Shown in pieces: positions 6,219 to 55,840 of a stretch of 64,000 nucleotides of DNA. The notes beneath the pieces were generated by a model, which saw only the letters and a list, made by a program, of their open reading frames with translations, was not told where the DNA came from and did not search any database. The DNA is from an uncultured Bacilli bacterium (lineage in GTDB: Bacteria > Bacillota_I > Bacilli_A > RF39 > UBA660). A program made the position numbers and the translations under genes. Location: contig CAKOOO010000001.1 in assembly GCA_934098665.1 (NCBI GenBank), positions 106,752 to 170,751 of the forward strand, written 5' to 3'. The first letter of the stretch is position 1. Every line of letters starts with the position of its first letter.

Positions 6219-6830
6219 TTAATTATTTAAATTATTAAATTCATCAATTGCATCTAAAATTTTATATATACTTGTATGTGGATTTGAATTTAATAAATCA
6301 CCATTATTTTTATTAATTTTTTGTTCGAGAGATTTTGCAGTATTTCTTGCATTATTTGTTAAGTCTTTAATAACTTTATACATATCCATACTTTCTTTAT
6401 AAGTACCATTTAAGTTTTGTAATTCTTTTTTTACATCTTTACTAGTTTGAAAGTTTAATCTATTAGTTCGGTAATGCATAACGTACCATATTTCAAAAGT
6501 TGGAGCTGATGATATTATTTCTATATTATTTTCGATACATTTTTGTTTTATTTCTTTTATTTCATTTATTCGACTTTTACTTAAATCTGTATCCAATACT
6601 AGAAATATTTTATAATTTTCTTCAGAAAGAATATCTTCATTATGAATATATTTTAATAAATCATCTAACATACCTTTAGGGTCAGTACTATTTCCTGTAG
6701 AAAACTGGATTCTTAAGTTTCTATTAGCAAAATTTCTAAAGTAATAATATTCCGAAGATTTTTTCCCACCCTCTGATGAAATGACAATTAAGGGTCTTTT
6801 CTTATTATGTTTTATTTGTCTTCTAGCCAT
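6219..6830 (-). CDS. RloB-like protein (AbiLii-like, TOPRIM-type partner of an OLD-like ATPase)
   Basis: The N-terminus MARRQIKHNKKRPLIVISSEGGKKSSEYYYFRNF matches the RloB signature (basic N-terminus, LIVxxEGxxTExxYF). It overlaps the upstream ATPase gene by 19 nt. Confidence 0.6.
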   Translation of the reverse strand: MARRQIKHNKKRPLIVISSEGGKKSSEYYYFRNFANRNLRIQFSTGNSTDPKGMLDDLLKYIHNEDILSEENYKIFLVLDTDLSKSRINEIKEIKQKCIENNIEIISSAPTFEIWYVMHYRTNRLNFQTSKDVKKELQNLNGTYKESMDMYKVIKDLTNNARNTAKSLEQKINKNNGDLLNSNPHTSIYKILDAIDEFNNLNN

Positions 6831-8068
6831 AGGTCAGTATCTTTTATAAATGGAATTGCTCCGTATCTTCCATTTACATATCCTTTTTGAATATTTTCAT
6901 CTTTTCTTACAGAAAATGAATCAAGTGGATATAAATCTGATATTCCATTTTCAGGATTTTTCTCTGTAAACCAAATTTGATCTCTTCTTAACAATTCCAA
7001 ATTTAATAAATTAATAGCATGAGTTGTAAATATTAACTGACTATTAGCCTTATTTATTTCATTATTATTAAATAATTTAACTATAAATTCTACTAAAGCA
7101 GGATGTAAGCTTTTTTCTAATTCATCTACTACAATAACTTTTGACGTTTCAAACGCTTTTTTTAAAAATGGTGCAAATGCAAACAGTACTTTTGTTCCTG
7201 ATGACTCTTCAATAAAATTTAATTTATATGTATGAGTTACATTTTTATCATCTATAACTTCATGTTCCAGTTCTATATTAAAATTTTTAACTTTTAACTT
7301 TCCTTTTTGATTATCTATTTGTAATGCTAATAAATTATCCACTTCTTTTTCTTCATAATCAACATTAATGTCTTTTATTAAAATATCTGCTTCCTTTAAT
7401 AATTTTAATGCAAATTCTTTTAAATTTTCTTCTTTATTACTATAATCCACTAAATCTTTATCAGCAATACTTTCAAAAGAATCATAGGTATCAATTATAT
7501 TAGCAAACCATAAATAAGCATCTTTTGTTTTGGAATAATTCCAAGTTGTAGCTGTAGATAAAAATAATTTATTTTCAGTATTATTTGTTGATAACGACTC
7601 CAATTTATTTTTATCTATATTAAATTCATAATTATTTGTTTTAGTTCTTTTAAAAATATTAGTAGGTTTTTGGCTATAATAAGCATCTAATACTTCGTCA
7701 TAAATTTTATTTGCATCAGCACTAAAAAAATACCTATACTTAATATTATTTGCTATAAATATAAATTCAAACTCACTTGGTTTATTTTTACTAACTTCAT
7801 CAAATAAGAAAGGTTTTATAAAATTCCATTTACCACCCACGGGTATCAAATTTGAATTTCTAACCATTAATATTGCACAAGTTAGAGCTTTTAATATATT
7901 AGATTTTCCTGAAGCGTTTGCGCCATATATTGCAGCACTTTTAAGTAAAGAAATATTTTCATTAGATATTACATTATCTAAATTTTCTTCTCCACTACCC
8001 TTTTCCATAGATAATGTTACTTTATTTTTAAAAGATAAAAAATTTTTTATACTAAATTCTATAAGCAT
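6812..8068 (-). CDS. AAA-family ATPase (AbiLi-like/OLD-like ABC ATPase)
   Basis: The N-terminus MLIEFSIKNFLSFKNKVTLSM is followed by a Walker A (GANASGKSNILKAL). Walker B/D-loop is VVDELEKSLHP. H-loop is FTTHA. This is the typical partner of RloB. Confidence 0.7.
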   Translation of the reverse strand: MLIEFSIKNFLSFKNKVTLSMEKGSGEENLDNVISNENISLLKSAAIYGANASGKSNILKALTCAILMVRNSNLIPVGGKWNFIKPFLFDEVSKNKPSEFEFIFIANNIKYRYFFSADANKIYDEVLDAYYSQKPTNIFKRTKTNNYEFNIDKNKLESLSTNNTENKLFLSTATTWNYSKTKDAYLWFANIIDTYDSFESIADKDLVDYSNKEENLKEFALKLLKEADILIKDINVDYEEKEVDNLLALQIDNQKGKLKVKNFNIELEHEVIDDKNVTHTYKLNFIEESSGTKVLFAFAPFLKKAFETSKVIVVDELEKSLHPALVEFIVKLFNNNEINKANSQLIFTTHAINLLNLELLRRDQIWFTEKNPENGISDLYPLDSFSVRKDENIQKGYVNGRYGAIPFIKDTDLWLEDK

Positions 8069-9208: not shown

Positions 9209-10159
9209 TTAGTTTAAAGCATTTATTAATTCTTCTTTTTTCATTGAAGAATAACCTTTAACACCTTTTTCTTTAGCAATTGCTTTTAGTTCTGCAAGTG
9301 TTTTAGAACTTAAATCATCACTTTTTTCTTCTTCGTCTTCAACGATATCATTAATTAGGTAAACATCACTTTCTTTACCTTCTTTAACTTTTTCATCGAT
9401 AACTTCATCTTTAATTAATTCTTCCATTGAAGCATTTTTCTTATTTTTGTCTTCCTCAGTTACATAATCAACTATTTCTAAATTGTTTGCTTCACAAATA
9501 GCGTTTGTAAGTACTCCAAGTAAAACTTTAATACTTCTTACAGCATCATCATTTCCAGGAATAACATAGTCAACTAAATCTGGATCTCCATTAGTGTCAA
9601 CTACACCAAATACTGGAATATGAAGTTTTCTAGCTTCTTTAATTGCATTGTATTCTTTTCTTGGATCTACAATGATTAATGCCTGTGGAAGTTTAGTCAT
9701 TTCTCTAATACCACAAAGAAGTGTATTTAATTTGTCATATTCTTTCTTAATTTTAATAACTTCTTTTTTAGGTAGTGCATCAAATGTTCCATCACTTTCC
9801 ATTTTTTCAATGTCCTCAAGTCTTTTAACTCTTCTTCTAATAGTTCTAAAGTTAGTTAAAGTTCCTCCAAGCCATCTTTCAGTTACATAGTATGAACCAC
9901 TTCTAAGTGCTTCTTCTACAGCAACTTCTCCTGATTGTTTTTTAGTTCCTACAAATAAGAACTTTCCTCCATTACTAGCAATAGTCTTAATTTCTTCATA
10001 AGCCTCCTCTAGTAATTTTTGTGTTTTTTCAAGATCAATAATATAAATATCATCTCTTGAATTAAAAATGTACTCTTTCATTTTAGGATTCCATCTTTTA
10101 GTTTGATGTCCAAAATGAACTCCTGCTTCTAATAAATAACTCATAGAAACAACGGCCAT
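9209..10159 (-). CDS. rpsB: 30S ribosomal protein S2
   Basis: The N-terminus is [19 protein letters not shown]. 316 aa with an acidic C-terminal extension. Confidence 0.95.
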
Positions 10160-10303
10160 AAAATATCCCTCCTTCGTTATTACACCTTAATGCTTCTTCC
10201 TAACATTTCACCCTCTTCGGGCACTCGAAACATTAGTCCACATTAATGTTTATTTGCTTTTAAAGCCAATACTATATTATCAAATATTGTTAATAATTAC
10301 AAG

Positions 10304-10340
10304 TCTAAAAAAATCGCTCTTCACAAAAGCGAAGAACGAT
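10304..10340 (-). terminator. Rho-independent terminator of DGR target paralog A
   Basis: Hairpin cgctcttcac-aaaa-gcgaagaacg followed by a T-run on the minus strand (plus-strand A8 at 10305-10312). A homologous hairpin follows paralog B at 13202-13240. Confidence 0.6.
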
Positions 10341-11411
10341 TTATATTCCTAGTCTATAAGGATTAGTTTTACTTCCTGTTCCTCCAGTTACATACACATT
10401 AGATTTTAGATATAAGACTGGCCTAGCCGCGCGACCATAGGAAGCCGAATTGAAGTACAAATTGCCGACGCTAGTCACGGTAAGAGGAATCGAAGAATTA
10501 TGTGCACTCATAGTCCACTCTAAGCCATTTGAAAATAACCAGTTCTTATTCATATAACTTGCTGGGCTTCCAGCACTTCCTAACACTTCAGTAAATCCTT
10601 CTATTGCGTATCCCCAATCACTTGCATACATCAGTCCTATTTTTGAAGTACTTGTTGTATGAGTTGCTATTTCTTGTGTGTAGTAATTATCTGCTGTTTT
10701 ATATGTACTATCTCCTGCTCCTACATTATAGTATACATCTTCTATCATATTTCCATAATAATCACTTGCATCTATTCCATCTGATGAATAGTTACATAAT
10801 CCTACTGCTGATGTACCTGAATGGCAATAACTATCACAAGATGATGCTTTTCCTAAATAACATGTATTAAGTAAATTTTGAATATTACTTCCCATCCATG
10901 TTGAGTTACTTCCATATTTTATTGCTCCTATAGAATCATTTCTTATTAGTTTTACTCTATTTTGAGTTGTTGCACATCCACTTGTTAAGCATACTGGTAC
11001 GTTACCTATTATTCTCCATAATTCATCATTAAACCATACATAATTATTTGGATCTGTTCCTTGATATCTTTTTCCATGTATTGTAGAAGTACCTTTACTA
11101 TCAACCACATTACTTAAATTACTAGCATTTGAATTAAATGAAATATCACACGTTACTGTTCCCTTTATTTTTGTTATTTCTAGTTTCCATGTTTTAGGGT
11201 TCCATACTCCTTTTCCATGTTCACAATTAACACTTACATTATATTTTCCTTTTGATGGAAAAGATGTTGCATCATTTCCATCTACTTTTAAAGCTATAAT
11301 ACTTCCATTATAATTAAATGTTTTAATGCTTTTACTACTTATAACTATAAGTAAAGTAAAACTTATTATTATAAATATACTACATATTATTATTTTTTTG
11401 TTATATTTCAT
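10341..11411 (-). CDS. secreted surface protein, candidate DGR target (paralog A) with a C-terminal variable region (VR-A about 10425-10497)
   Basis: N-terminal signal anchor. The C-terminal about 250 aa are homologous to those of 13241..14899 (WRIIGNVPVCLTSGCATTQNRVKLIRN etc.). It ends with the VR ...NSASYGRAARPVLYLKSNVYVTGGTGSKTNPYRLGI. VR-A is flanked 3' by the GC-rich motif gcggctaggcc. Confidence 0.6.
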   Translation of the reverse strand: MKYNKKIIICSIFIIISFTLLIVISSKSIKTFNYNGSIIALKVDGNDATSFPSKGKYNVSVNCEHGKGVWNPKTWKLEITKIKGTVTCDISFNSNASNLSNVVDSKGTSTIHGKRYQGTDPNNYVWFNDELWRIIGNVPVCLTSGCATTQNRVKLIRNDSIGAIKYGSNSTWMGSNIQNLLNTCYLGKASSCDSYCHSGTSAVGLCNYSSDGIDASDYYGNMIEDVYYNVGAGDSTYKTADNYYTQEIATHTTSTSKIGLMYASDWGYAIEGFTEVLGSAGSPASYMNKNWLFSNGLEWTMSAHNSSIPLTVTSVGNLYFNSASYGRAARPVLYLKSNVYVTGGTGSKTNPYRLGI

Positions 11412-11661
11412 TTAACATCCTTCTTTCTAATAATTTTATTAATTTATATTTTGTATAATAATATAAATAATTATTTTTTTCATATTCTTTTTTTATTTCT
11501 ATTTCTAAATTATTTAATACAATATAATTTATATTATTTAAATTTTTTATATTCTTATATATTAATTTATCTTCATAAAACGTATAATATTTATTATTTT
11601 TTTTAATTAATATTAAATAATATGGATAAATCATTTTTAATACTTTATATCTTTCTTTCAT
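11401..11661 (-). CDS. hypothetical small protein, very AT-rich and of doubtful reality
   Basis: ORF track only. Composition is Lys/Tyr/Asn-rich and no motif was found. Confidence 0.2.
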   Translation of the reverse strand: MKERYKVLKMIYPYYLILIKKNNKYYTFYEDKLIYKNIKNLNNINYIVLNNLEIEIKKEYEKNNYLYYYTKYKLIKLLERRMLNEI

Positions 11662-11822
11662 ATTTATTTTATCTTTAGCGTCTATAGAAAAAATACGTAT
11701 ATTTTTTCGTCCATCTATTATTTTTTAAAAGTTAAAACTTTTAAGGATAATTAATATTTCTTATGCTAACACTTTGTATAGCCTTAACCATATAAATTTC
11801 AAACATAAGAAGTTGCTAAAAA

Positions 11823-11879
11823 AGCCGCGTTCCCGTTAGAAGCATTGTTGCTATTCACATTAAGAGGGTTCGAAGAAGA
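11823..11879 (-). repeat. DGR template-repeat (TR)-like segment
   Basis: Minus-strand reading is tct tcg AAc cct ctt AAt gtg AAt Agc AAc AAt gct tct AAc ggg AAc gcg gct (S S N P L N V N S N N A S N G N A A). It aligns with VR-B (13325-13397) and VR-A (10425-10497). The clear anchor cases are the TR AAC Asn codons matching TAC in VR-B, in the motif A-S-N-G-N versus A-S-Y-G-Y. It shares the GC-rich gcggct end, then diverges (TR gcggcttttttagc versus VR gcggctaggccagtc), as IMH* versus IMH would. Confidence 0.55.
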
Positions 11880-11910
11880 CTCCTTTTTAAAAATAATTAC
11901 CCTAATATAT

Positions 11911-12408
11911 TTAATAATATCTATTTATAATATGTTTTAATTTATCTTTGTTTACAAAATTATAACTATGTTTATAATTTTGTATTGAATAAAAATATTT
12001 TTTTATATCTATTTTAAGTGCATATATATTATTAATTTTATGTTTTAATTTTTCAATATTATATAGTAATAAATTAATAGCATATGTTAGTCCCATACCT
12101 TTTCTTGTTGCAGTAATTTCTTTACATAAATATTTTGATAATTTTGGGATTAATATATATTTTGCTACATAATGATTTATTACTTTATTAATTATATTTT
12201 CACTCATTACAACTCTTATTTTAGGATCTTTTACTAAAAATATATTATAATTACTTTTAATATATAAATTATTTTCAAGTATATATTTAATATAAATTAA
12301 ATACTCTATTTTATATTTTTCAAATGCAAGAATTTTCTTTCTATTTTTCACTCCTTTCAATATTTCATTATTATATATATCTAATAAATCATTTATTATT
12401 ACTATCAT
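11911..12408 (-). pseudogene. DGR-type reverse transcriptase, N-terminal fragment (finger domain plus motifs 1 and 2) truncated before motif 3
   Basis: 165 aa. It matches the DGR RT N-terminus and motif 1 (FLVKDPKIRVVMSENIINKVINHYV, compare Bordetella bRT FLVYEPKPRLISALEFKDRLVQHAL) and motif 2 (LKIDIKKYFYSI, compare LKSDFSKFFPSI). A stop follows motif 2 by 20 codons and no YxDD lies downstream in any frame. The TR-like segment follows immediately. Confidence 0.6.
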
Positions 12409-12730
12409 GCTCTATCTTATTATCCATCCACTTATTACACATTTTATTTATTTCACTTAACTTATAAGTAACTTTTTTTAAATTACTTTCACTAATATAA
12501 TGTTTAATAAATATTCTTTCTAATATATAATCTATAACACTAATAAATGAATTTATTTCTACTTTATATATAGATATATTTTTATAATTATTTTCATTAT
12601 TAACTTTATTTATAAAATATAATAATTTTATAGATAATTCTTTTAATTTATCTTTATAAAAATAATCTTTTTTAGGTATATTTTCTATTAAATTTATTAT
12701 ACTTTCTAAATTTTTCCATAGAACATTTAT
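12389..12730 (-). other. open frame of 113 codons lacking an ATG/GTG/TTG start; possible Avd-like accessory gene remnant
   Basis: Manual translation of the minus strand from 12730 to 12389 reads INVLWKNLESIINLIENIPKKDYFYKDKLKELSIKLLYFINKV...ILERIFIKHY...KIEHDSNNK with no stop. It is helical, roughly the size of Avd, and lies between the RT fragments. It overlaps the RT N-fragment start by 20 nt in another frame. Confidence 0.2.
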
Positions 12731-12742
12731 TTAATTTATCTA

Positions 12743-13114
12743 TTAAAAAATCCACTTTTTTTTATCTAAATTTTTAAATGACATATCTAAATATTTAGAA
12801 TAAGTATTTATTTTACCAAAGTCTTTTATTAAAGGATCTTTATCTACATCTATAATTTGATAAGATATTTTAGCATCAGATAAAGTATTAATAACTTTAT
12901 TTATTGATGTATCAGGAAAACCTGATACTCCACCTTTCAATACTTTATAACCAAATAAAGTATTCATAATATAAACATCAATATTTTTACATTGATAAAA
13001 TTTGCCATGATTTTTAAAAATTATTAAAAATGATTTATCATCATGTTTTACATCATTAGATGTATAGCACTTTACACTTTTATCTATACATTTTGGTGTA
13101 TCTACCTCCCAGTT
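12743..13114 (-). pseudogene. reverse transcriptase C-terminal fragment (motif 7-like LFGYK plus thumb), located upstream of the N-terminal fragment
   Basis: The ORF-track 74-aa ORF (12743..12967) extends without stops up to 13114: NWEVDTPKCIDKSVKCYTSNDVKHDDKSFLIIFKNHGKFYQCKNIDVYIMNTLFGYKVLKGG.... NTLFGYKVL matches RT motif 7 (FLGYR in bRT). The 67 aa after it match the length of the bRT thumb. HDD may be a degenerate YxDD. Confidence 0.35.
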
Positions 13115-13201
13115 TTACATTATTTTTACTTTTATTAAACATTTTCAAATCTAAAACTTCCTTTCTACTTTACATTGAAAATGTAATATTTACATTTTAT
13201 C

Positions 13202-13240
13202 AAAATCGGCTTCACAAAGCGAAGCACGATTTTTTATTTT
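13202..13240 (-). terminator. terminator hairpin of DGR target paralog B
   Basis: tcggcttcac-aaa-gcgaagcacga, homologous to the hairpin after paralog A. Confidence 0.5.
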
Positions 13241-14899
13241 TTATATTCCTAGTGTATAAGGATCAGTTTTACTTCCAGTACCACCAGTTTTATATACATT
13301 AGATTTTAGATATAAGACTGGCCTAGCCGCGTACCCGTAAGAAGCATTGTGGATGTCCAAATAGCCGTCGTAGTAGACGTTAAGAGGGGATGAAGAATTA
13401 TATGCACTCATTGTCCACTCATATCCATTTGAAAATAACCAGTTCTTATTCATATAACTTTCTGGGTTTCCACTTCTTCCGAGTACTTTAGTAAAACCTT
13501 CTATTGCGTATCCCCAGTCACTTGCATACATTAAGCCTATTTTTGAAGTTGCACTTGCATAACTTGCTATTTCTTTTGTATATTGGTCATCTGCATTTAC
13601 ATATGAAGCGCTTGATGGTACTCCTACATTGTAGTATACATCTTCTATCATATTTCCATAATAATCACTTGCATCTATTCCATCTGAAGAATAGTTGCAT
13701 AATCCTACTGCTGATGTAGAATATGAATAACAATAACTATCACATGAGGATACTTTTCCTAAATAACATGTATTTAGTAAATTTTGAATATTACTTCCTA
13801 TCCATGTAAATGGACTGGATGAGCTAAAGGCAGTTTGATTAAATGCTATTGCACCTATTGAATTGTTTCTTATTAGTTTTACTCTATTTTGAGTTGTTGC
13901 ACATCCACTTGTTAGACATACTGGTACGTTTCCGATTATTCTCCATAATTCATCGTTATACCACACATAGTTATCTGGATCTGTTCCTTGATATCTTATT
14001 CCATGTGTTGTACTTGTCCCTTTTGTATCTACTATAGTAGAAAGTAGCTCACTATTTGAGGGTGTTTTTTGAGTAAATGATATATCACAGTTTACAAAAT
14101 CTGACCAATTAGATATAACTAAACCATTTAATTTATTATCCCATACTGCACTATTTGTTCCACTGCAATTTGTTATACTTTTTGTATATCCTGATAAAAG
14201 GTATGCTGGAGTTGCAACATTTACTGTTACATCTTTTTCTGGTGGAAGAGGATCTCCCATTGTACATTTTGCATTAGTAACTCTATATTTACCTTTAAAA
14301 GTTTTATTTGCTAGTGCTGACTGATCTAAATCTAAATTATAAAATCTATTTGTAAAATTCCATGTTTGTTTTTTATCTTTATTTGAGGAAGAGTTTGCTA
14401 TAACTGCACCACTTACTATAGTTGCAGTTGTAGTGGTTAAATTAAAGTTTTTTTCTTCCACATAATTATTTGTTCCTGTATTTGGACCTTTTGCCTCTAA
14501 AGTAAGTTCTTTTGTTGCTCCACTTGTAACAGGCGTAGGACTTTTTCCATAAATACTTGAATCACTATCATAAGTAAATGTAATATCATATGTACAGCTT
14601 ACTGAATATTCTTCACTACCTGATATTAAAGATACTACTAAAGAAGATGTATTTTCCGCTACATAATTATCTCTATTACTTTGACTCATACCTTTAGGGT
14701 CAATTGTTAAAGCAAAATCAGCATTTGTTACATCTAAAATAGAGTTTGCTAAATTTTTTGCAGCTATATTAACATTTGCTTTATTTGAAATATCCACTAA
14801 AAAATTACCAATATATGCAAATGCCACTGATACTACAAGTACAATTAATACTACAGATATTATAATAGTTTTAATATTTTTCTTATCTAATTTTTTCAT
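13241..14899 (-). CDS. secreted protein, candidate DGR target (paralog B): TasA/camelysin-like N-terminal region with a SipW-type signal, fused to the diversified C-terminal domain (VR-B about 13325-13397)
   Basis: The N-terminus MKKLDKKNIKTIIISVVLIVLVVSVAFAYIGNF resembles the SipW-cognate signal. Residues about 30-230 are homologous to 48674..49351 and 55080..55748. The C-terminal about 250 aa are homologous to paralog A. VR is ...SPLNVYYDGYLDIHNASYGYAARP with Tyr codons where the TR has Asn. Confidence 0.6.
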   Translation of the reverse strand: MKKLDKKNIKTIIISVVLIVLVVSVAFAYIGNFLVDISNKANVNIAAKNLANSILDVTNADFALTIDPKGMSQSNRDNYVAENTSSLVVSLISGSEEYSVSCTYDITFTYDSDSSIYGKSPTPVTSGATKELTLEAKGPNTGTNNYVEEKNFNLTTTTATIVSGAVIANSSSNKDKKQTWNFTNRFYNLDLDQSALANKTFKGKYRVTNAKCTMGDPLPPEKDVTVNVATPAYLLSGYTKSITNCSGTNSAVWDNKLNGLVISNWSDFVNCDISFTQKTPSNSELLSTIVDTKGTSTTHGIRYQGTDPDNYVWYNDELWRIIGNVPVCLTSGCATTQNRVKLIRNNSIGAIAFNQTAFSSSSPFTWIGSNIQNLLNTCYLGKVSSCDSYCYSYSTSAVGLCNYSSDGIDASDYYGNMIEDVYYNVGVPSSASYVNADDQYTKEIASYASATSKIGLMYASDWGYAIEGFTKVLGRSGNPESYMNKNWLFSNGYEWTMSAYNSSSPLNVYYDGYLDIHNASYGYAARPVLYLKSNVYKTGGTGSKTDPYTLGI

Positions 14900-15009
14900 A
14901 TTTATCTTTCCTATCTTACATTTATAATAATACCATAGTCTTATTATTTTTCCAAGTACATAAATAAAAAAAGTTATAACTAAAATTAATTAATTATAAC
15001 TTATATTTT

Positions 15010-17550
15010 CTATACTCCTAAAGGAATATTTTTCTTTTTTAAAATATATTTTCTTATTAAATCTACTATAAAAATAGATAATGATAAAATAAATGTAAAT
15101 AATAACTCTTTAAAAGAAAGACCATAAGTTCTAAATAAATCTTTACCATTATAAATAATATATATTTGAACTATAAATATAAAAATATTTATTATTAAAA
15201 ACACTTTATTTTTTAAAATATGAGCAAAAATATTAAGTCTATGAGTACGTGATGTAAATGAGTTACATATACCTAAAAATATAAATAATGCAAAATATGC
15301 TGTAAATAATGTTTTTTCACTAGGAAAAAGATTTTTTATAAAAGGAAGTTTTAAAAACAAAAGACATAATATTCCTGAATAAATACCATTTATAAGAATT
15401 TGATTAAACATATATTTATTCATAACTTTTTCATTTTTAGTTTTTGGTTTTTCCTCTAAAAACTCTTTTAAAGGTGGTTCATAAGAAAATGCAAGACCTG
15501 CAAAAGTATCCATAATCATATTAAGCCAAAGCATTTGAATTATTGTAATTGGTGTTGATATACCAAGAAGTACTCCTACAATAGATAATACAAGTGCACA
15601 TACATTTACAGTAAGCTGATATATAATAAATTTTCTAATACTTTTAAAAATAGTTCTTCCATAAAGCACTGCATTACAAATTGATTTAATATTATCATCT
15701 AAAATAACTATATCACTTGCATCTTTACTTACTTCAGAACCTGATCCAAGAGCAAAACCTACATCACTTTTTTTAAGGGCAAGTGCATCATTTACGCCAT
15801 CACCTGTCATACCAACAACATAATTATAACTTTGTAAAATTGAAACAAGTCTACTTTTATCTTGGGGAAGCGCTCTTGCTATAACTTTTAAATATTTTAT
15901 TTGGCTCATAATTTGTTCATCTGATAAACTAGAAAGTTCATTATGAGTAAGTGCTATAGACCCATTTTTATAAAGACCTAACTCTTTAGCAATATTTATA
16001 GCGGTTTCTTTACTATCACCAGTAATCATAATAACTTTTATACCTGCATTTTCTATTTGTTCTAGACTTTCTTTAGCATCTTTTCTAAGTACATCAGATA
16101 TAATAATTAAGTTAATAAAAGTAAGCTCTTCTTTATTTTTTCCATAAGCATTTACTAAAACTCTATATCCTTTTGAGGTATAACTTTTTATAGTATTTTC
16201 TAATATCATTTTCGATGAAAAAAATTCTTCTTTTCCATTTAAAGTTAAATATTTAGTGCATTTTTTTAAAAGTACTTCACTTGCTCCTTTAAAATAGTAA
16301 AGATCTGATTTTACCATACTATATTTATTTTCTGATGTAAAAAGAACTTTTTCAGTTATAATATCAGTATTATTAAGTGGTCCAATAAACCTTTTAATAG
16401 CTTTATCCGTAATATTACCACCAATAATATCTTTTCCTGAAAATACACTTTCATTATTTAAAAATAAAGATTTAGAAAGTATATTATAATAATCTTTATA
16501 ATGGGTTAATTCCTCTTTTGATTTAAATATTTTTCCATTATTAGAAATAATATATTTTACATTTAACTTACCCATTGTTAATGTACCAGTTTTATCACAT
16601 AGTAAAACATTTAATGAACCACTTGTTTCTATACCTACAAGTTTACGAACAAGTACATTATCCTTTAGCATTTTTTTCATATTCGAAGAAAGTACTAAAG
16701 TAATCATCATAGGAAGGCCTTCGGGTACTGCTACAATGATAATGGTTACAGTTAATGTTAAAACGTAAAAAATATAATTAAGCATCAAAGGAATATTTTT
16801 TAAAGTAAGCACTATTAAATGGATATTAAAATTATTTTTAACAACAATTTGCATAAATAAATATGATAAACTTGCAAGAGATGCACCAATATAACCAAGT
16901 TTACTTATACTTTTTGCAAGAACACGTAATCTTCCCTTCAAAGGGCTTTCACTCTTTTTTTCTTGAACGCCTTTAGAAATATCTCCCATAAAAGTATTAT
17001 CACCAACACTAGTTACTTTTATTTTAGCTTCGCCCTTATATACTGTCGAAGAGCTATAAACAGTTTCATTATAACCTTTGGTAACTTCACGGCTTTCACC
17101 AGTAATAAAGGACTCATCTAAAGTAAGCGTGCCAGAAATAATTTTACCATCTGCCGCAATTTTATCTCCCCCTGATAAACACAAAATATCACCAACAACA
17201 ACATCTTTACTTTGAATACTTATAAGTTTATTATTACGAATTACTTTAGCACTTGTTTTTTGACTTTCTTCGAAAAGTCTTTCAAATGCTTTATTAGAAC
17301 CATATTCACTTATCGAAGATATAAAAGATGCTAAAAAAATTGCAATAACAATTCCAAGTGTTTCATACCAGTCAAAATTTTTAAATAAAAATACAACTTT
17401 TATGGCAAGAGCTATTAAAAGTATTTTAATTATAGGATCAGATAGTGACTCTAATAATATTTTTAAAAATGTATCACCTTTTTTTCTAGTTATTTCATTA
17501 CTACCATATTTTTTACGACTACTTAATACTTCATTATCATTTAGTCCCAA
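15010..17550 (-). CDS. P-type cation-transporting ATPase (Ca2+-ATPase type, P2)
   Basis: The phosphorylation motif is CDKTGTLT, the hinge motif is GMTGDGVNDALALKKSDVGFALG, and there are 10 predicted TM segments. Confidence 0.9.
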   Translation of the reverse strand: MGLNDNEVLSSRKKYGSNEITRKKGDTFLKILLESLSDPIIKILLIALAIKVVFLFKNFDWYETLGIVIAIFLASFISSISEYGSNKAFERLFEESQKTSAKVIRNNKLISIQSKDVVVGDILCLSGGDKIAADGKIISGTLTLDESFITGESREVTKGYNETVYSSSTVYKGEAKIKVTSVGDNTFMGDISKGVQEKKSESPLKGRLRVLAKSISKLGYIGASLASLSYLFMQIVVKNNFNIHLIVLTLKNIPLMLNYIFYVLTLTVTIIIVAVPEGLPMMITLVLSSNMKKMLKDNVLVRKLVGIETSGSLNVLLCDKTGTLTMGKLNVKYIISNNGKIFKSKEELTHYKDYYNILSKSLFLNNESVFSGKDIIGGNITDKAIKRFIGPLNNTDIITEKVLFTSENKYSMVKSDLYYFKGASEVLLKKCTKYLTLNGKEEFFSSKMILENTIKSYTSKGYRVLVNAYGKNKEELTFINLIIISDVLRKDAKESLEQIENAGIKVIMITGDSKETAINIAKELGLYKNGSIALTHNELSSLSDEQIMSQIKYLKVIARALPQDKSRLVSILQSYNYVVGMTGDGVNDALALKKSDVGFALGSGSEVSKDASDIVILDDNIKSICNAVLYGRTIFKSIRKFIIYQLTVNVCALVLSIVGVLLGISTPITIIQMLWLNMIMDTFAGLAFSYEPPLKEFLEEKPKTKNEKVMNKYMFNQILINGIYSGILCLLFLKLPFIKNLFPSEKTLFTAYFALFIFLGICNSFTSRTHRLNIFAHILKNKVFLIINIFIFIVQIYIIYNGKDLFRTYGLSFKELLFTFILSLSIFIVDLIRKYILKKKNIPLGV

Positions 17551-48684: not shown

Positions 48685-49351
48685 TATTTACTCCACATCT
48701 AACATTTTCTACATAAAAGTTACCACTAAAGTTTTGTCCCTGAAGGGCTGCTTGACTTTCAGAAAGTAAATAAAATTTTAAGTTAATATTCCAAGACTGT
48801 GTTGTTCCTGAAGTGGTATTATCATTTATCACAGCATCCTTTACAACTGTCATCTTTTTATTTGAACAAGATGAAGCAAAAGAAAAGTTTTTTTCTTCAG
48901 AAAAGCTATTTGTTCCAGTACTTGGTCCGCTTATTTTTAAAGTAAGTTCCTTATCTACAGAAGATGTAACTGGAGTACTACCACAACCATACATTAAACT
49001 ATCACTTTCATATTCATAAACTATATCATATTTACAGTTATAACTAGACTGTGTTGAACCAAAAGTTAAGGTTACATTTAAGTTTGAATTACTATCCGCT
49101 ACAACTTCACCTACACTTTTTTCAATCATATTTGCAAGCGTTGCATGTAAATTAAGTGGCGCAGACGTTGAAATAAATGAAGTATTAAGACCTGCTCCAG
49201 TATTTACATTTACATTAGCGTGGTCTTTAGTATTTTGACTAAATGAACCAAAGTATGCAAAAGATGCCCCTATTACGATAAGTGTCAAAAAAGCCATTGC
49301 AATTAAACTAACTACTTTAATTTTTTTATTTTCCATTTCCATATTTATCAT
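48674..49351 (-). CDS. TasA/camelysin-like secreted protein with a SipW-cognate-type signal peptide
   Basis: The signal is MENKKIKVVSLIAMAFLTLIVIGASFAYFGSFSQ (compare G-G-T-F-A-Y-F-S-D of SipW substrates). It is homologous to 55080..55748 and to the N-region of 13241..14899 (PVTSSVDKELTLKISGPSTGTN, QAALQGQNFSGNFYV). Confidence 0.6.
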   Translation of the reverse strand: MINMEMENKKIKVVSLIAMAFLTLIVIGASFAYFGSFSQNTKDHANVNVNTGAGLNTSFISTSAPLNLHATLANMIEKSVGEVVADSNSNLNVTLTFGSTQSSYNCKYDIVYEYESDSLMYGCGSTPVTSSVDKELTLKISGPSTGTNSFSEEKNFSFASSCSNKKMTVVKDAVINDNTTSGTTQSWNINLKFYLLSESQAALQGQNFSGNFYVENVRCGVNNEG

Positions 49352-55079: not shown

Positions 55080-55748
55080 CTAATTAGCAACAGTATTACA
55101 TTTAACGTTTTCAACAGCTAAAGTACCTGTGAAACTTTTATTTGCTAAAGCACTTTGATCTTGGCTTGGCATGTTTTTAAATGTAGTAGCTAAAGTATAA
55201 ACAGCTGTAGTAGCGTTAGCTTCAACATCAGCACTGCTTATTGATTCACCAGTAGCAATAGTAACTTTTGCACCAGTTTGTAGTAATTCCATACTCTTAT
55301 CAGCACCAACTACAGTTTCAGTTCTAGTTCCAGGAGTAAATTTACCAGTTACAGCTGCTGGAGCAGTTAAAGTATAAATAAATTCACCTTCTACAACTTT
55401 AGTATAAGCAGGAGTACCAGTATATACTACATCATATGTACATGTAGTTGTAGCTGCTGTAGTACCAGCAGATAAACTAACTGTTAAACTACCATCACCT
55501 TTACCAGCTTCAACAAATTCAGTTCCTTCACCAGCACCCATTTTGTTATCAGGTACAGTATAATTCATATCTTTACCAGTAGTTTTAAATACTACTGATT
55601 GTCCTGAACCTGTAGTAACGTTAACGTTTGATGGTTTAAGATCGTCAGTACTAAATGAACCAAAGTATGCAAATGTTGCTCCTACTACTGCTACAAGTAA
55701 TGTAGCTACTGCGATAACAGTTAACAATAAAGTATTTTTCTTTTCCAT
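55080..55748 (-). CDS. TasA/camelysin-like secreted protein with a SipW-cognate-type signal peptide
   Basis: The signal is MEKKNTLLLTVIAVATLLVAVVGATFAYFGSFS. The C-terminus QDQSALANKSFTGTLAVENVKC matches the paralogs at 48674 and 13241. Confidence 0.6.
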   Translation of the reverse strand: MEKKNTLLLTVIAVATLLVAVVGATFAYFGSFSTDDLKPSNVNVTTGSGQSVVFKTTGKDMNYTVPDNKMGAGEGTEFVEAGKGDGSLTVSLSAGTTAATTTCTYDVVYTGTPAYTKVVEGEFIYTLTAPAAVTGKFTPGTRTETVVGADKSMELLQTGAKVTIATGESISSADVEANATTAVYTLATTFKNMPSQDQSALANKSFTGTLAVENVKCNTVAN

Positions 55749-55840
55749 CTTGTTTTCCTATCTCCTTTCTATTATAAATTTATCACAAATTATAATCATA
55801 AATCAAGTCCTTTTTGTAAGTTTTTAATTTTTTTTAATTT

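Follow-up and report, generated by a model that had tools for sequence, protein, structure and literature searches.

In a 64,000-nucleotide (nt) stretch from an uncultured Bacilli bacterium of the RF39 lineage (contig CAKOOO010000001.1 of assembly GCA_934098665.1, positions 106,752 to 170,751; this whole stretch is called the window below), a short minus-strand segment rich in asparagine codons resembles the 3' parts of two genes that lie on either side of it. Is this segment the template repeat (TR) of a diversity-generating retroelement (DGR), and if so, could the element still be rewriting the variable repeats (VRs) of its target genes? We conclude that it is the TR of a chromosomal DGR with the gene order avd, reverse transcriptase (RT), TR, and that this element is now defunct; we put the probability of this reading at roughly 0.88. 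The cassette runs along the minus strand in the order target B, a 74-amino-acid (aa) MutS-like open reading frame (ORF), Avd, RT, TR, a structured RNA, an 86-aa ORF and target A. The repeats compared are as follows.

11876..11823, minus strand: TR, 54 nt (18 codons), at the position where homologous TRs of relatives have 24 codons.
13396..13325, minus strand: VR-B, 24 codons (72 nt); the stop codon of target B lies 81 nt beyond its end.
10496..10425, minus strand: VR-A, 24 codons (72 nt), whose end is likewise 81 nt from the stop codon of target A.

The TR, VR-A and VR-B sequences quoted in an earlier reading made from the letters alone (the sequence-only reading) are all present in the window. 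Its 18 TR codons are also right (tct tcg AAc cct ctt AAt gtg AAt Agc, then AAc AAt gct tct AAc ggg AAc gcg gct on the minus strand), while the extent it gave, 57 nt from 11879, has to be shortened: codon 11879..11877 is an extra tct outside the TR/VR homology and the real span is 54 nt from 11876. The TR is a non-coding, invariant copy that starts 35 nt past the RT stop codon, with the conserved RNA directly 3' of it, and the VRs lie at the 3' ends of the target ORFs. Compared with the VRs, the TR has 18 rather than 24 codons, and six codons (18 nt) are therefore gone from it by internal deletion; the same difference had been described earlier as six extra codons in VR-B. Full-length TRs of 24 codons occupy the equivalent position in the related loci L003, L007, L009 and L109. 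The L109 TR, the closest of the full-length ones, is identical to the window TR over the first nine codons, continues with atc ggt ggt ctg aat acg and then resumes with aac aat … gcg gct; alignment to it sets the gap after codon 9.

The composition of the TR differs from that of its surroundings. Its G+C content is 46% (VRs, 50-51%; whole window, 25%), and its AAC:AAT ratio is 4:3, versus 9:125 across four housekeeping genes. The TR has AAY codons at the columns where the VRs vary. With its four variable positions masked, the 3' 24-nt pattern occurred twice in the window versus 0 times expected (100 shuffles). The TR sequence is the same in the window and in the loci L001, L002 and L087.

To compare the repeats base by base, we set the six-codon gap after TR codon 10 for the main tally and after codon 9 as an alternative. 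Between the TR and VR-B, mismatches occurred at 7/15 adenine (A) sites and 5/39 non-A sites (one-sided Fisher p = 0.0125) under either placement. Between the TR and VR-A, the counts were 10/15 A sites and 6/39 non-A sites (one-sided Fisher p = 0.0005), or 8/15 and 7/39 with the gap after codon 9. Mismatches are thus enriched at TR adenines in both comparisons. In the 3' block of the TR (27-28 nt), all three mismatches to VR-B fall on A and none on the 19 non-A sites, exactly as the sequence-only reading had claimed for this block. Its statement that differences elsewhere are mostly at adenines was too generous for the 5' block of VR-B, where 4-5 A mismatches and 5 non-A mismatches make a near-even split. 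Similarly, VR-A is the more diverged copy in total mismatches, as had been said, but it is relatively more adenine-specific than VR-B. The adenine bias in the window is real, yet much dirtier than in an active DGR: it is an enrichment and not exclusive, and only the 3' 27-28 nt of VR-B are clean. TR/VR homology stops at gcggct and the sequences beyond are unrelated; no element resembling an initiation of mutagenic homing (IMH) site was recognisable there, although no family-wide IMH analysis was made.

What an undamaged cassette of this type looks like can be seen in relatives. A search with the RT fragment returned homologues of up to 288 aa, whose C-terminus (…KYFYSLENYFHSYNFVNKDKINHIIDRYY) is that of the window fragment, and at least 434 related loci turned up when one genome per species was scanned. 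Nearly all of these belong to metagenome-assembled genomes (MAGs) from the gut of humans, rabbits, ruminants and chickens that carry the labels uncultured Bacilli, Tenericutes or 'Mycoplasma sp. CAG:611'. The succession of RT stop codon, TR and RNA is the same in L003, L006, L007, L009, L109 and about 25 further loci. Intact cassettes (L009, L109) encode a target of 568-572 aa, an ORF of 100-121 aa, an Avd of 124-129 aa and an RT of 353 aa, and continue 3' of the RT gene with a 24-codon TR, the RNA, an ORF of 86-89 aa and a second target of 368-378 aa.

In several of these loci, TR and VR differ at adenines only. The numbers of A and non-A mismatches were 14 and 0 in L014 (over 95 nt), 15 and 0 in L017, 10 and 0 in L020, 13 and 0 in L026, 18 and 0 in both L063 and L084, and 14 and 0 and 10 and 1 for the two VRs of L009. 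The intact RT matches Pfam RVT_1 (E = 5.6e-16), and its top match among solved structures is 8ub7, a 328-aa 'Reverse transcriptase' (E = 3.5e-13), with a group II intron maturase behind it. We take the entries 8ub7-8ube to be the Bordetella phage bRT-Avd-RNA complexes. In PADLOC the intact RT homologue matched generic RT and DRT models only, and the window remnant matched none. The VR columns are the hypervariable part of the homologous target proteins, and the sequence on either side of them is conserved. Because A-only TR/VR pairs, RVT_1 and bAvd matches and hypervariable VR columns all occur in it, the cassette family is a genuine DGR family of avd-RT-TR order.

The window cassette departs from this plan at three genes in addition to its TR. 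We mapped the lesions by aligning it with L006, L007, L009, L086 and L109.

12408..11911, minus strand: RT remnant, 165 aa, matching Pfam RVT_1 at profile positions 7-90 only.
12002..11987, minus strand: RT deletion junction, the single leftover copy of AAAAATATTTTTATTC.
12730..12389, minus strand: Avd-like remnant whose open frame spans 113 codons; its Pfam bAvd match (E = 1.3e-5) does not reach the gathering score.
12967..12743, minus strand: remnant of the small accessory ORF, 74 aa here versus 100-121 aa in intact cassettes.

The RT remnant consists of residues 1 to ~144 of the 353-aa enzyme (through motif A, IDIKKYFYSI) fused in frame to residues ~321-353. Residues ~145-320 are deleted, YMDD included, and the remnant has no YxDD; the intact YxDD core of a DGR-type RT, which the 353-aa homologues possess, is thus missing. 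When the intact RT was compared with the window by tblastn, matches were obtained only at residues 1-144 and 321-353, and no other RT was detectable in the 64-kb window. The deletion comprises 564 nt, is in frame and lies between direct repeats of 16-18 nt: AAAAATATTTTTATTC is present twice, 564 nt apart, in intact homologues (L009). Between the RT remnants of the window and L087 there are 7 nonsynonymous and 5 synonymous differences, too few to judge selection.

The Avd frame has no ATG, GTG or TTG start. A deletion of ~80-90 nt near 12695 takes out the N-terminal ~25-30 codons of Avd and joins Avd to the upstream ORF. In L086 this fusion is in frame and uninterrupted, while in the window two indels near 12755-12715, one of -4 within an A-run and one of +1, interrupt the fused frame. 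For the accessory ORF, the TTG start of the L009 homologue reads TTA in the window. This ORF is possibly MutS-domain-I-like: the L009 homologue has a sub-threshold MutS_I match (E = 0.1, 13.3 bits against a cut-off of 20.6), and the window remnant has no MutS_I match in Pfam.

Every one of these lesions is also found in the independent assemblies L001 and L002. They are therefore real and common in the species, and not an assembly artefact. L087, a short contig that holds the RT remnant, the TR and the RNA, has the same RT and TR lesions, and the 90% cluster of the RT fragment has 39 member sequences.

The RNA beside the TR is still largely intact.

11822..~11680, minus strand: conserved structured RNA directly 3' of the TR, with five covarying helices.
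11708..11687, minus strand: 9-bp stem with a UACG tetraloop, GAAAAAAUA-UACG-UAUUUUUUC, the last hairpin of this RNA.

The non-coding stretch 3' of the TR is ~140 nt long, and the RNA is kept in about 30 loci. RNAalifold predicted 34 pairs from 24 sequences, 31/34 of them with compensatory changes. In an explicit count over the 24 loci, 93.4% of cells were paired, versus 40-48% when the partners were slid by 1-3 columns; the covariation score was 0.70 versus 0.08-0.17 after sliding, and 0/500 shuffles reached the observed values. The UACG stem is helix 5, which is 98% paired with compensatory changes in eight of its nine pairs. In the window 30/34 pairs are kept and four are broken, two of which are also broken only in L007, another locus with a broken RT. 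The broken pairs are within the spread of the other sequences and we do not count them as decay.

Putative Avd-binding stem-loops have been reported shortly after the TR in 207/278 Avd-containing DGRs, and those described are mostly 9 bp long and capped by a tetraloop, with UNCG frequent in some phyla (Handa et al., bioRxiv 10.1101/2023.10.23.563531). The UACG stem fits this description. The RNA element is probably where RT and Avd bind the DGR RNA and where priming takes place; the five covarying helices establish a structured RNA flanking the TR, and Avd binding and priming are its putative roles. A search of Rfam with 10000-15200 (E <= 1) left the TR-adjacent RNA unmatched, the sole match being a chance plastid-intron hit inside target A.

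By analogy with the Bordetella phage paradigm, an intact cassette would produce one transcript with avd, the RT gene, the TR and the structured 3' RNA. An RT-Avd complex would bind this RNA and copy the TR into cDNA, misincorporating opposite template adenines, and the cDNA would replace the 72-nt VRs, which lie close to the 3' ends of the paralogous genes for surface proteins on either side. Asparagine (AAY) codons of the TR would in this way give many different codons in the VR. In the window, the machinery has decayed: the RT core was lost through a direct-repeat deletion, Avd lost its N-terminus and reading frame, and the TR lost six codons; the order of these events is one that we infer. 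Given the lost RT core, the interrupted Avd and the shortened TR, the VRs look frozen: they are fossil products of past mutagenic homing that now evolve as ordinary coding sequence. The sequence-only reading had argued for an inactive or decaying element, and the three deletions, together with VRs that are static between sampled strains, bear this out.

The evidence for static VRs comes from a comparison across strains, as the sequence-only reading had proposed. Among the window, L001 and L002, near-identical genomes that come from different samples, there are 6-8 differences across the 5.2-kb cassette and none in the TR, VR-A or VR-B. VR-A is identical in four protein variants of target A that are 95-98% identical to one another. 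For target B there are two variants, one identical and the other 92% identical (P0049/L086), and the VR-B of L086 differs from that of the window at ~13 codons, with changes of the kind that AAY codons generate. VR-B was, on this sequence comparison, rewritten after the window and L086 lineages split and is static within the sampled window lineage. Ongoing VR diversification was not seen in this small sample. A scan of metagenomes with VR-flank patterns found 10 related loci (including L109) and none from the window's own species; among the metagenome loci, L101, L103, L105 and L107 have identical VR pairs. Among lineages with a broken RT, identical VRs were found across up to 10 samples. In the P0011 lineage, whose RT is split into 212 + 120 aa, nine contigs from different samples have the same VRs, and in the P0006 lineage, also with a split RT, three contigs do. 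Four SNPs are clustered within 22 nt of target B in L001 (13610-13631). We considered gene conversion from target A as their origin and rejected it, as only one of them agrees with A and none changes an amino acid.

Where, then, do the non-A mismatches come from? The two VRs do not agree with the resident TR in the same places. The 3' third of VR-B matches the resident TR at every non-A position, including 'gct tct' ('tcg tac' in the L109 TR), and its 5' part is closer to TRs of the L007/L009 type (aac gtc NAc NAc). VR-A shows the reverse, with gtg and agc in common with the resident TR in its 5' part and a 3' part (tcg gct tcN) like the L007-type TR. This mosaic may reflect successive partial rewrites from a changing TR, recombination between cassettes, or both.

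The closest intact cassette, L109 (metagenome contig OIYG01005107.1, 1-6437), has ~81% nt identity to the window and encodes a 353-aa RT and a 124-aa Avd beside its 24-codon TR. Identity to the window is itself a mosaic: ~81% overall, but complete across the first nine TR codons and the RT C-terminus. Intact as this cassette is, its TR mismatches its own VRs at 24/52 and 14/52 non-A sites, and because of this RT/TR modules and target genes appear to have been reshuffled between cassettes in the clade by recombination. Drift or an older copy, which the sequence-only reading had suggested for the non-A mismatches of VR-A, need not explain all non-A mismatches.

Several observations weigh against a dead element. 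The mismatch load is a weak clock, since non-A mismatches arise by shuffling as well as by drift. Homing into VR-B appears fairly recent, as judged from the shared gct tct and the ~13 codons that separate it from L086. The RNA element has kept most of its pairs. The population sample is small, three near-identical genomes and a few protein variants. Finally, 64 kb of the genome are visible, and an intact second DGR could lie elsewhere; one related MAG does have two cassettes, L007 with a broken RT and L009 with an intact one.

One possibility raised by these observations is that the TR and its RNA are still in use, with a second intact DGR supplying RT and Avd in trans and VR-B, at least at its 3' end, occasionally rewritten. 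Several MAGs give 2-3 loci each, the RNA is conserved between cassette types, and an A-only block that begins at the TR deletion junction is what 3'-anchored partial homing from a shortened TR would be expected to leave. However, we consider this quite unlikely. The VRs are invariant among sampled strains, the window contains no RT elsewhere, and L009-type RTs from metagenomes (the P0006 and P0011 lineages) are themselves split, with frozen VRs. Full-length homing would also leave VRs that are six codons shorter, an allele that was not seen, and use of a TR by a paralogous RT-Avd is hypothetical for this cassette family.

A related suggestion concerns the past only. The A-only block of VR-B starts at the TR deletion junction and holds TR states specific to the window lineage. 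It could be speculated that it records the last partial, 3'-anchored retrohoming event from the already shortened TR, for which catalysis in trans by a second cassette has to be proposed because RT and Avd in cis are broken; we regard this as unlikely. If it were true, orphaned TR-RNA/VR sets would stay serviceable after the death of their own enzyme.

Another possibility is that the resident TR never templated these VRs, that a foreign RT-TR module recombined between older targets and that the TR/VR agreement reflects common TR ancestry. The poor fit of the L109 TR to its own VRs, the mosaic identity between the window and L109 and the better fit of the 5' half of VR-B to L007/L009-type TRs would all be accounted for. 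On the other hand, the window TR mismatches the window VRs at 5-7/39 non-A sites compared with 16-17/52 for the L109 TR, the 3' block of VR-B has the 'gct tct' of the resident TR with zero non-A mismatches, and the 5' half of VR-A has gtg and agc in common with it, all of which makes this explanation very improbable. The weakest idea, that the segment is an internal fragment of a third, degraded target paralogue, would suit a short piece with an indel that is homologous to the VR part of two paralogues, but it can be dismissed: homology does not extend into the flanks, as the sequence-only reading had said it should in that case (28-37% identity between TR and VR flanks over 60 nt, against a window null of 31 +/- 6% and 90-92% between the flanks of VR-A and VR-B), what the flanks do share homology with is the RT 3' end and the conserved RNA in many DGR cassettes, and AAY is kept at the VR-variable columns.

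The defunct avd-RT-TR element can be compared with known DGRs. Like the DGR of Bordetella phage BPP-1 (mtd VR, avd, TR, spacer RNA, brt), its family combines an RT with a small Avd-like helper, varies only the positions of TR adenines (in the relatives of the window), places the VR near the 3' end of a ligand-binding protein gene and has a structured RNA by the TR with a 9-bp, tetraloop-capped stem that resembles the described Avd-binding stem-loop. In contrast to BPP-1, the order is avd-RT-TR-RNA and not avd-TR-spacer-RT, the cassette is chromosomal with no phage genes seen nearby, there are two flanking targets and extra small ORFs, no IMH-like element is recognisable past the homology, and the RT, Avd and TR of the window are all damaged.

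In the survey of Wu et al. (2018, Nucleic Acids Res 46:11, PMC5758913), the avd-RT-TR order is architecture B2, and architecture D is the MSL-containing one. The cassette shares with B2 and D the avd-RT-TR core, the placement of all genes on one strand and a small neutral accessory ORF beside avd, whose similarity to MutS domain I is weak and sub-threshold here (E = 0.1). Unlike those architectures, it has a second conserved ORF of 86-89 aa between the RNA element and the downstream target. The text of that survey gives 0 occurrences for Tenericutes and Mycoplasma (PMC5758913), and our full-text literature search gave no publication in which DGRs are linked to RF39, Tenericutes or Mollicutes. 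DGRs scored as 'inactive' by Roux et al. (2021, Nat Commun 12:3076, PMC8144416) are likewise recognisable cassettes whose VRs do not diversify in populations; here, unlike there, explicit structural causes are present in the deleted RT core, Avd N-terminus and TR codons.

The locus is a clear natural example of the death of a DGR, in which the targets remain intact and the VRs last written are frozen. In very AT-rich DNA, deletions between short direct repeats have removed the RT core, the N-terminus of Avd and some of the template. Survey pipelines that need an intact RT would probably miss the window element. With the ~140-nt RNA as a model, searches could detect TRs, also orphan TRs that escape RT-based DGR finders. 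The avd-RT-TR family occurs widely among low-GC Bacilli of the gut that are uncultured (RF39-like or 'Tenericutes' MAGs), where loci with clean A-only TR/VR pairs coexist with loci of shortened RT in several lineages with different lesions. The understanding of how DGRs work is unchanged by this cassette type, which fits a known architecture; the main by-products are the well-supported RNA motif beside the TR and the view that, in these gut Bacilli, DGRs have been inactivated repeatedly and their modules shuffled.

Shortened RTs were observed in the following relatives. The RTs of the P0011 and P0006 lineages are split into 212-220 + 120-124 aa, a 5-nt duplication in L007 (8001-8490) leaves an RT of 163 aa, and the RT is truncated in L011, L019, L023, L059 and L084, the last still with 18 A and 0 non-A mismatches. 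In the lineage of L004 (6001-7630) and L005 (1693-3320), the RT is frameshifted to 287 aa in five protein clusters, the TR appears to be in two parts with ~290 nt inserted between them (TR-like stretches at 7063-7140 and 7425-7480), and the VR is the same in both loci. We considered L007 as a syntenic orthologue of the window locus, but its flanks lack the ATPase, rpsB and tsf, and orthology is not claimed. P0075 looks like an assembly chimera from a target-gene VR into sequence downstream of a TR, and many homologues, among them ORFs of 96 and 135 aa, on contigs of < 1.5 kb suggest that assemblies break at VRs.

The remaining features of the cassette are its targets, the second small ORF and two terminator-like hairpins.

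14899..13241, minus strand: target B, 552 aa, an intact ORF; a hydrophobic segment lies at its N-terminus and VR-B in a C-terminal domain of ~185 aa.
11411..10341, minus strand: target A, 356 aa, an intact ORF carrying VR-A.
11661..11401, minus strand: 86-aa ORF that follows the RNA element and overlaps the start of target A.
13209..13225, minus strand: terminator-like hairpin after target B.
10314-10332: terminator-like hairpin after target A.

Targets A and B are paralogous, with 72% identity over the C-terminal ~300 residues, and the VR is within the last ~60 residues of the ~185-aa domain. This domain family is very large (5189 clusters at 50% identity, E <= 1e-3), and the domain is often C-terminal and sometimes repeated. 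Neither target nor the 86-aa ORF matched any Pfam family at E <= 1, sub-threshold matches to DUF6273 were obtained for a few members of the domain family only, and a profile search of the domain against PDB sequences gave nothing. This position of the VR is shared with C-type-lectin-fold DGR variable proteins such as Treponema denticola TvpA, to which the C-terminal domain of Legionella Lcl is related by fold. The window target has no PDB or Pfam sequence match at threshold, and the structure model of its VR domain that bears on this fold is of low confidence (pLDDT 57); a first AlphaFold model of the 269-aa C-terminal region was unusable (pLDDT 38).

An ORF of 86-89 aa is present in all intact cassettes examined and overlaps the start codon of the downstream target (L009, 9327-9596; L109, 2952-3212). 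The N-terminal motif of this ORF, YLILIKKNNKYYTFYEDKLI, resembles MutS domain I by eye only. Terminator-like hairpins numbered 3 versus 0.4 expected, with none in the interval from RT/TR to target A. A promoter scan (38 found versus 32 expected) was uninformative in this AT-rich DNA.

The cassette lies among housekeeping genes, with a cation ATPase upstream and rpsB and tsf downstream. Further away, the regions 48695-49339 and 55098-55751 (minus strand) are relatives of target B residues 3-212 (37% and 31% identity) with no match to the C-terminal VR domain, and a wider surface-protein family seems to have the N-terminal module of target B in common. A pair of neighbouring genes at 6219-8068 (minus strand), just downstream of tsf, was identified by PADLOC matches as the abortive-infection system AbiL. 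The AbiLi match has 418 aa (E = 7.5e-95) and hits Pfam AAA_21, and the AbiLii match has 203 aa (E = 1.3e-13) and hits Pfam RloB.

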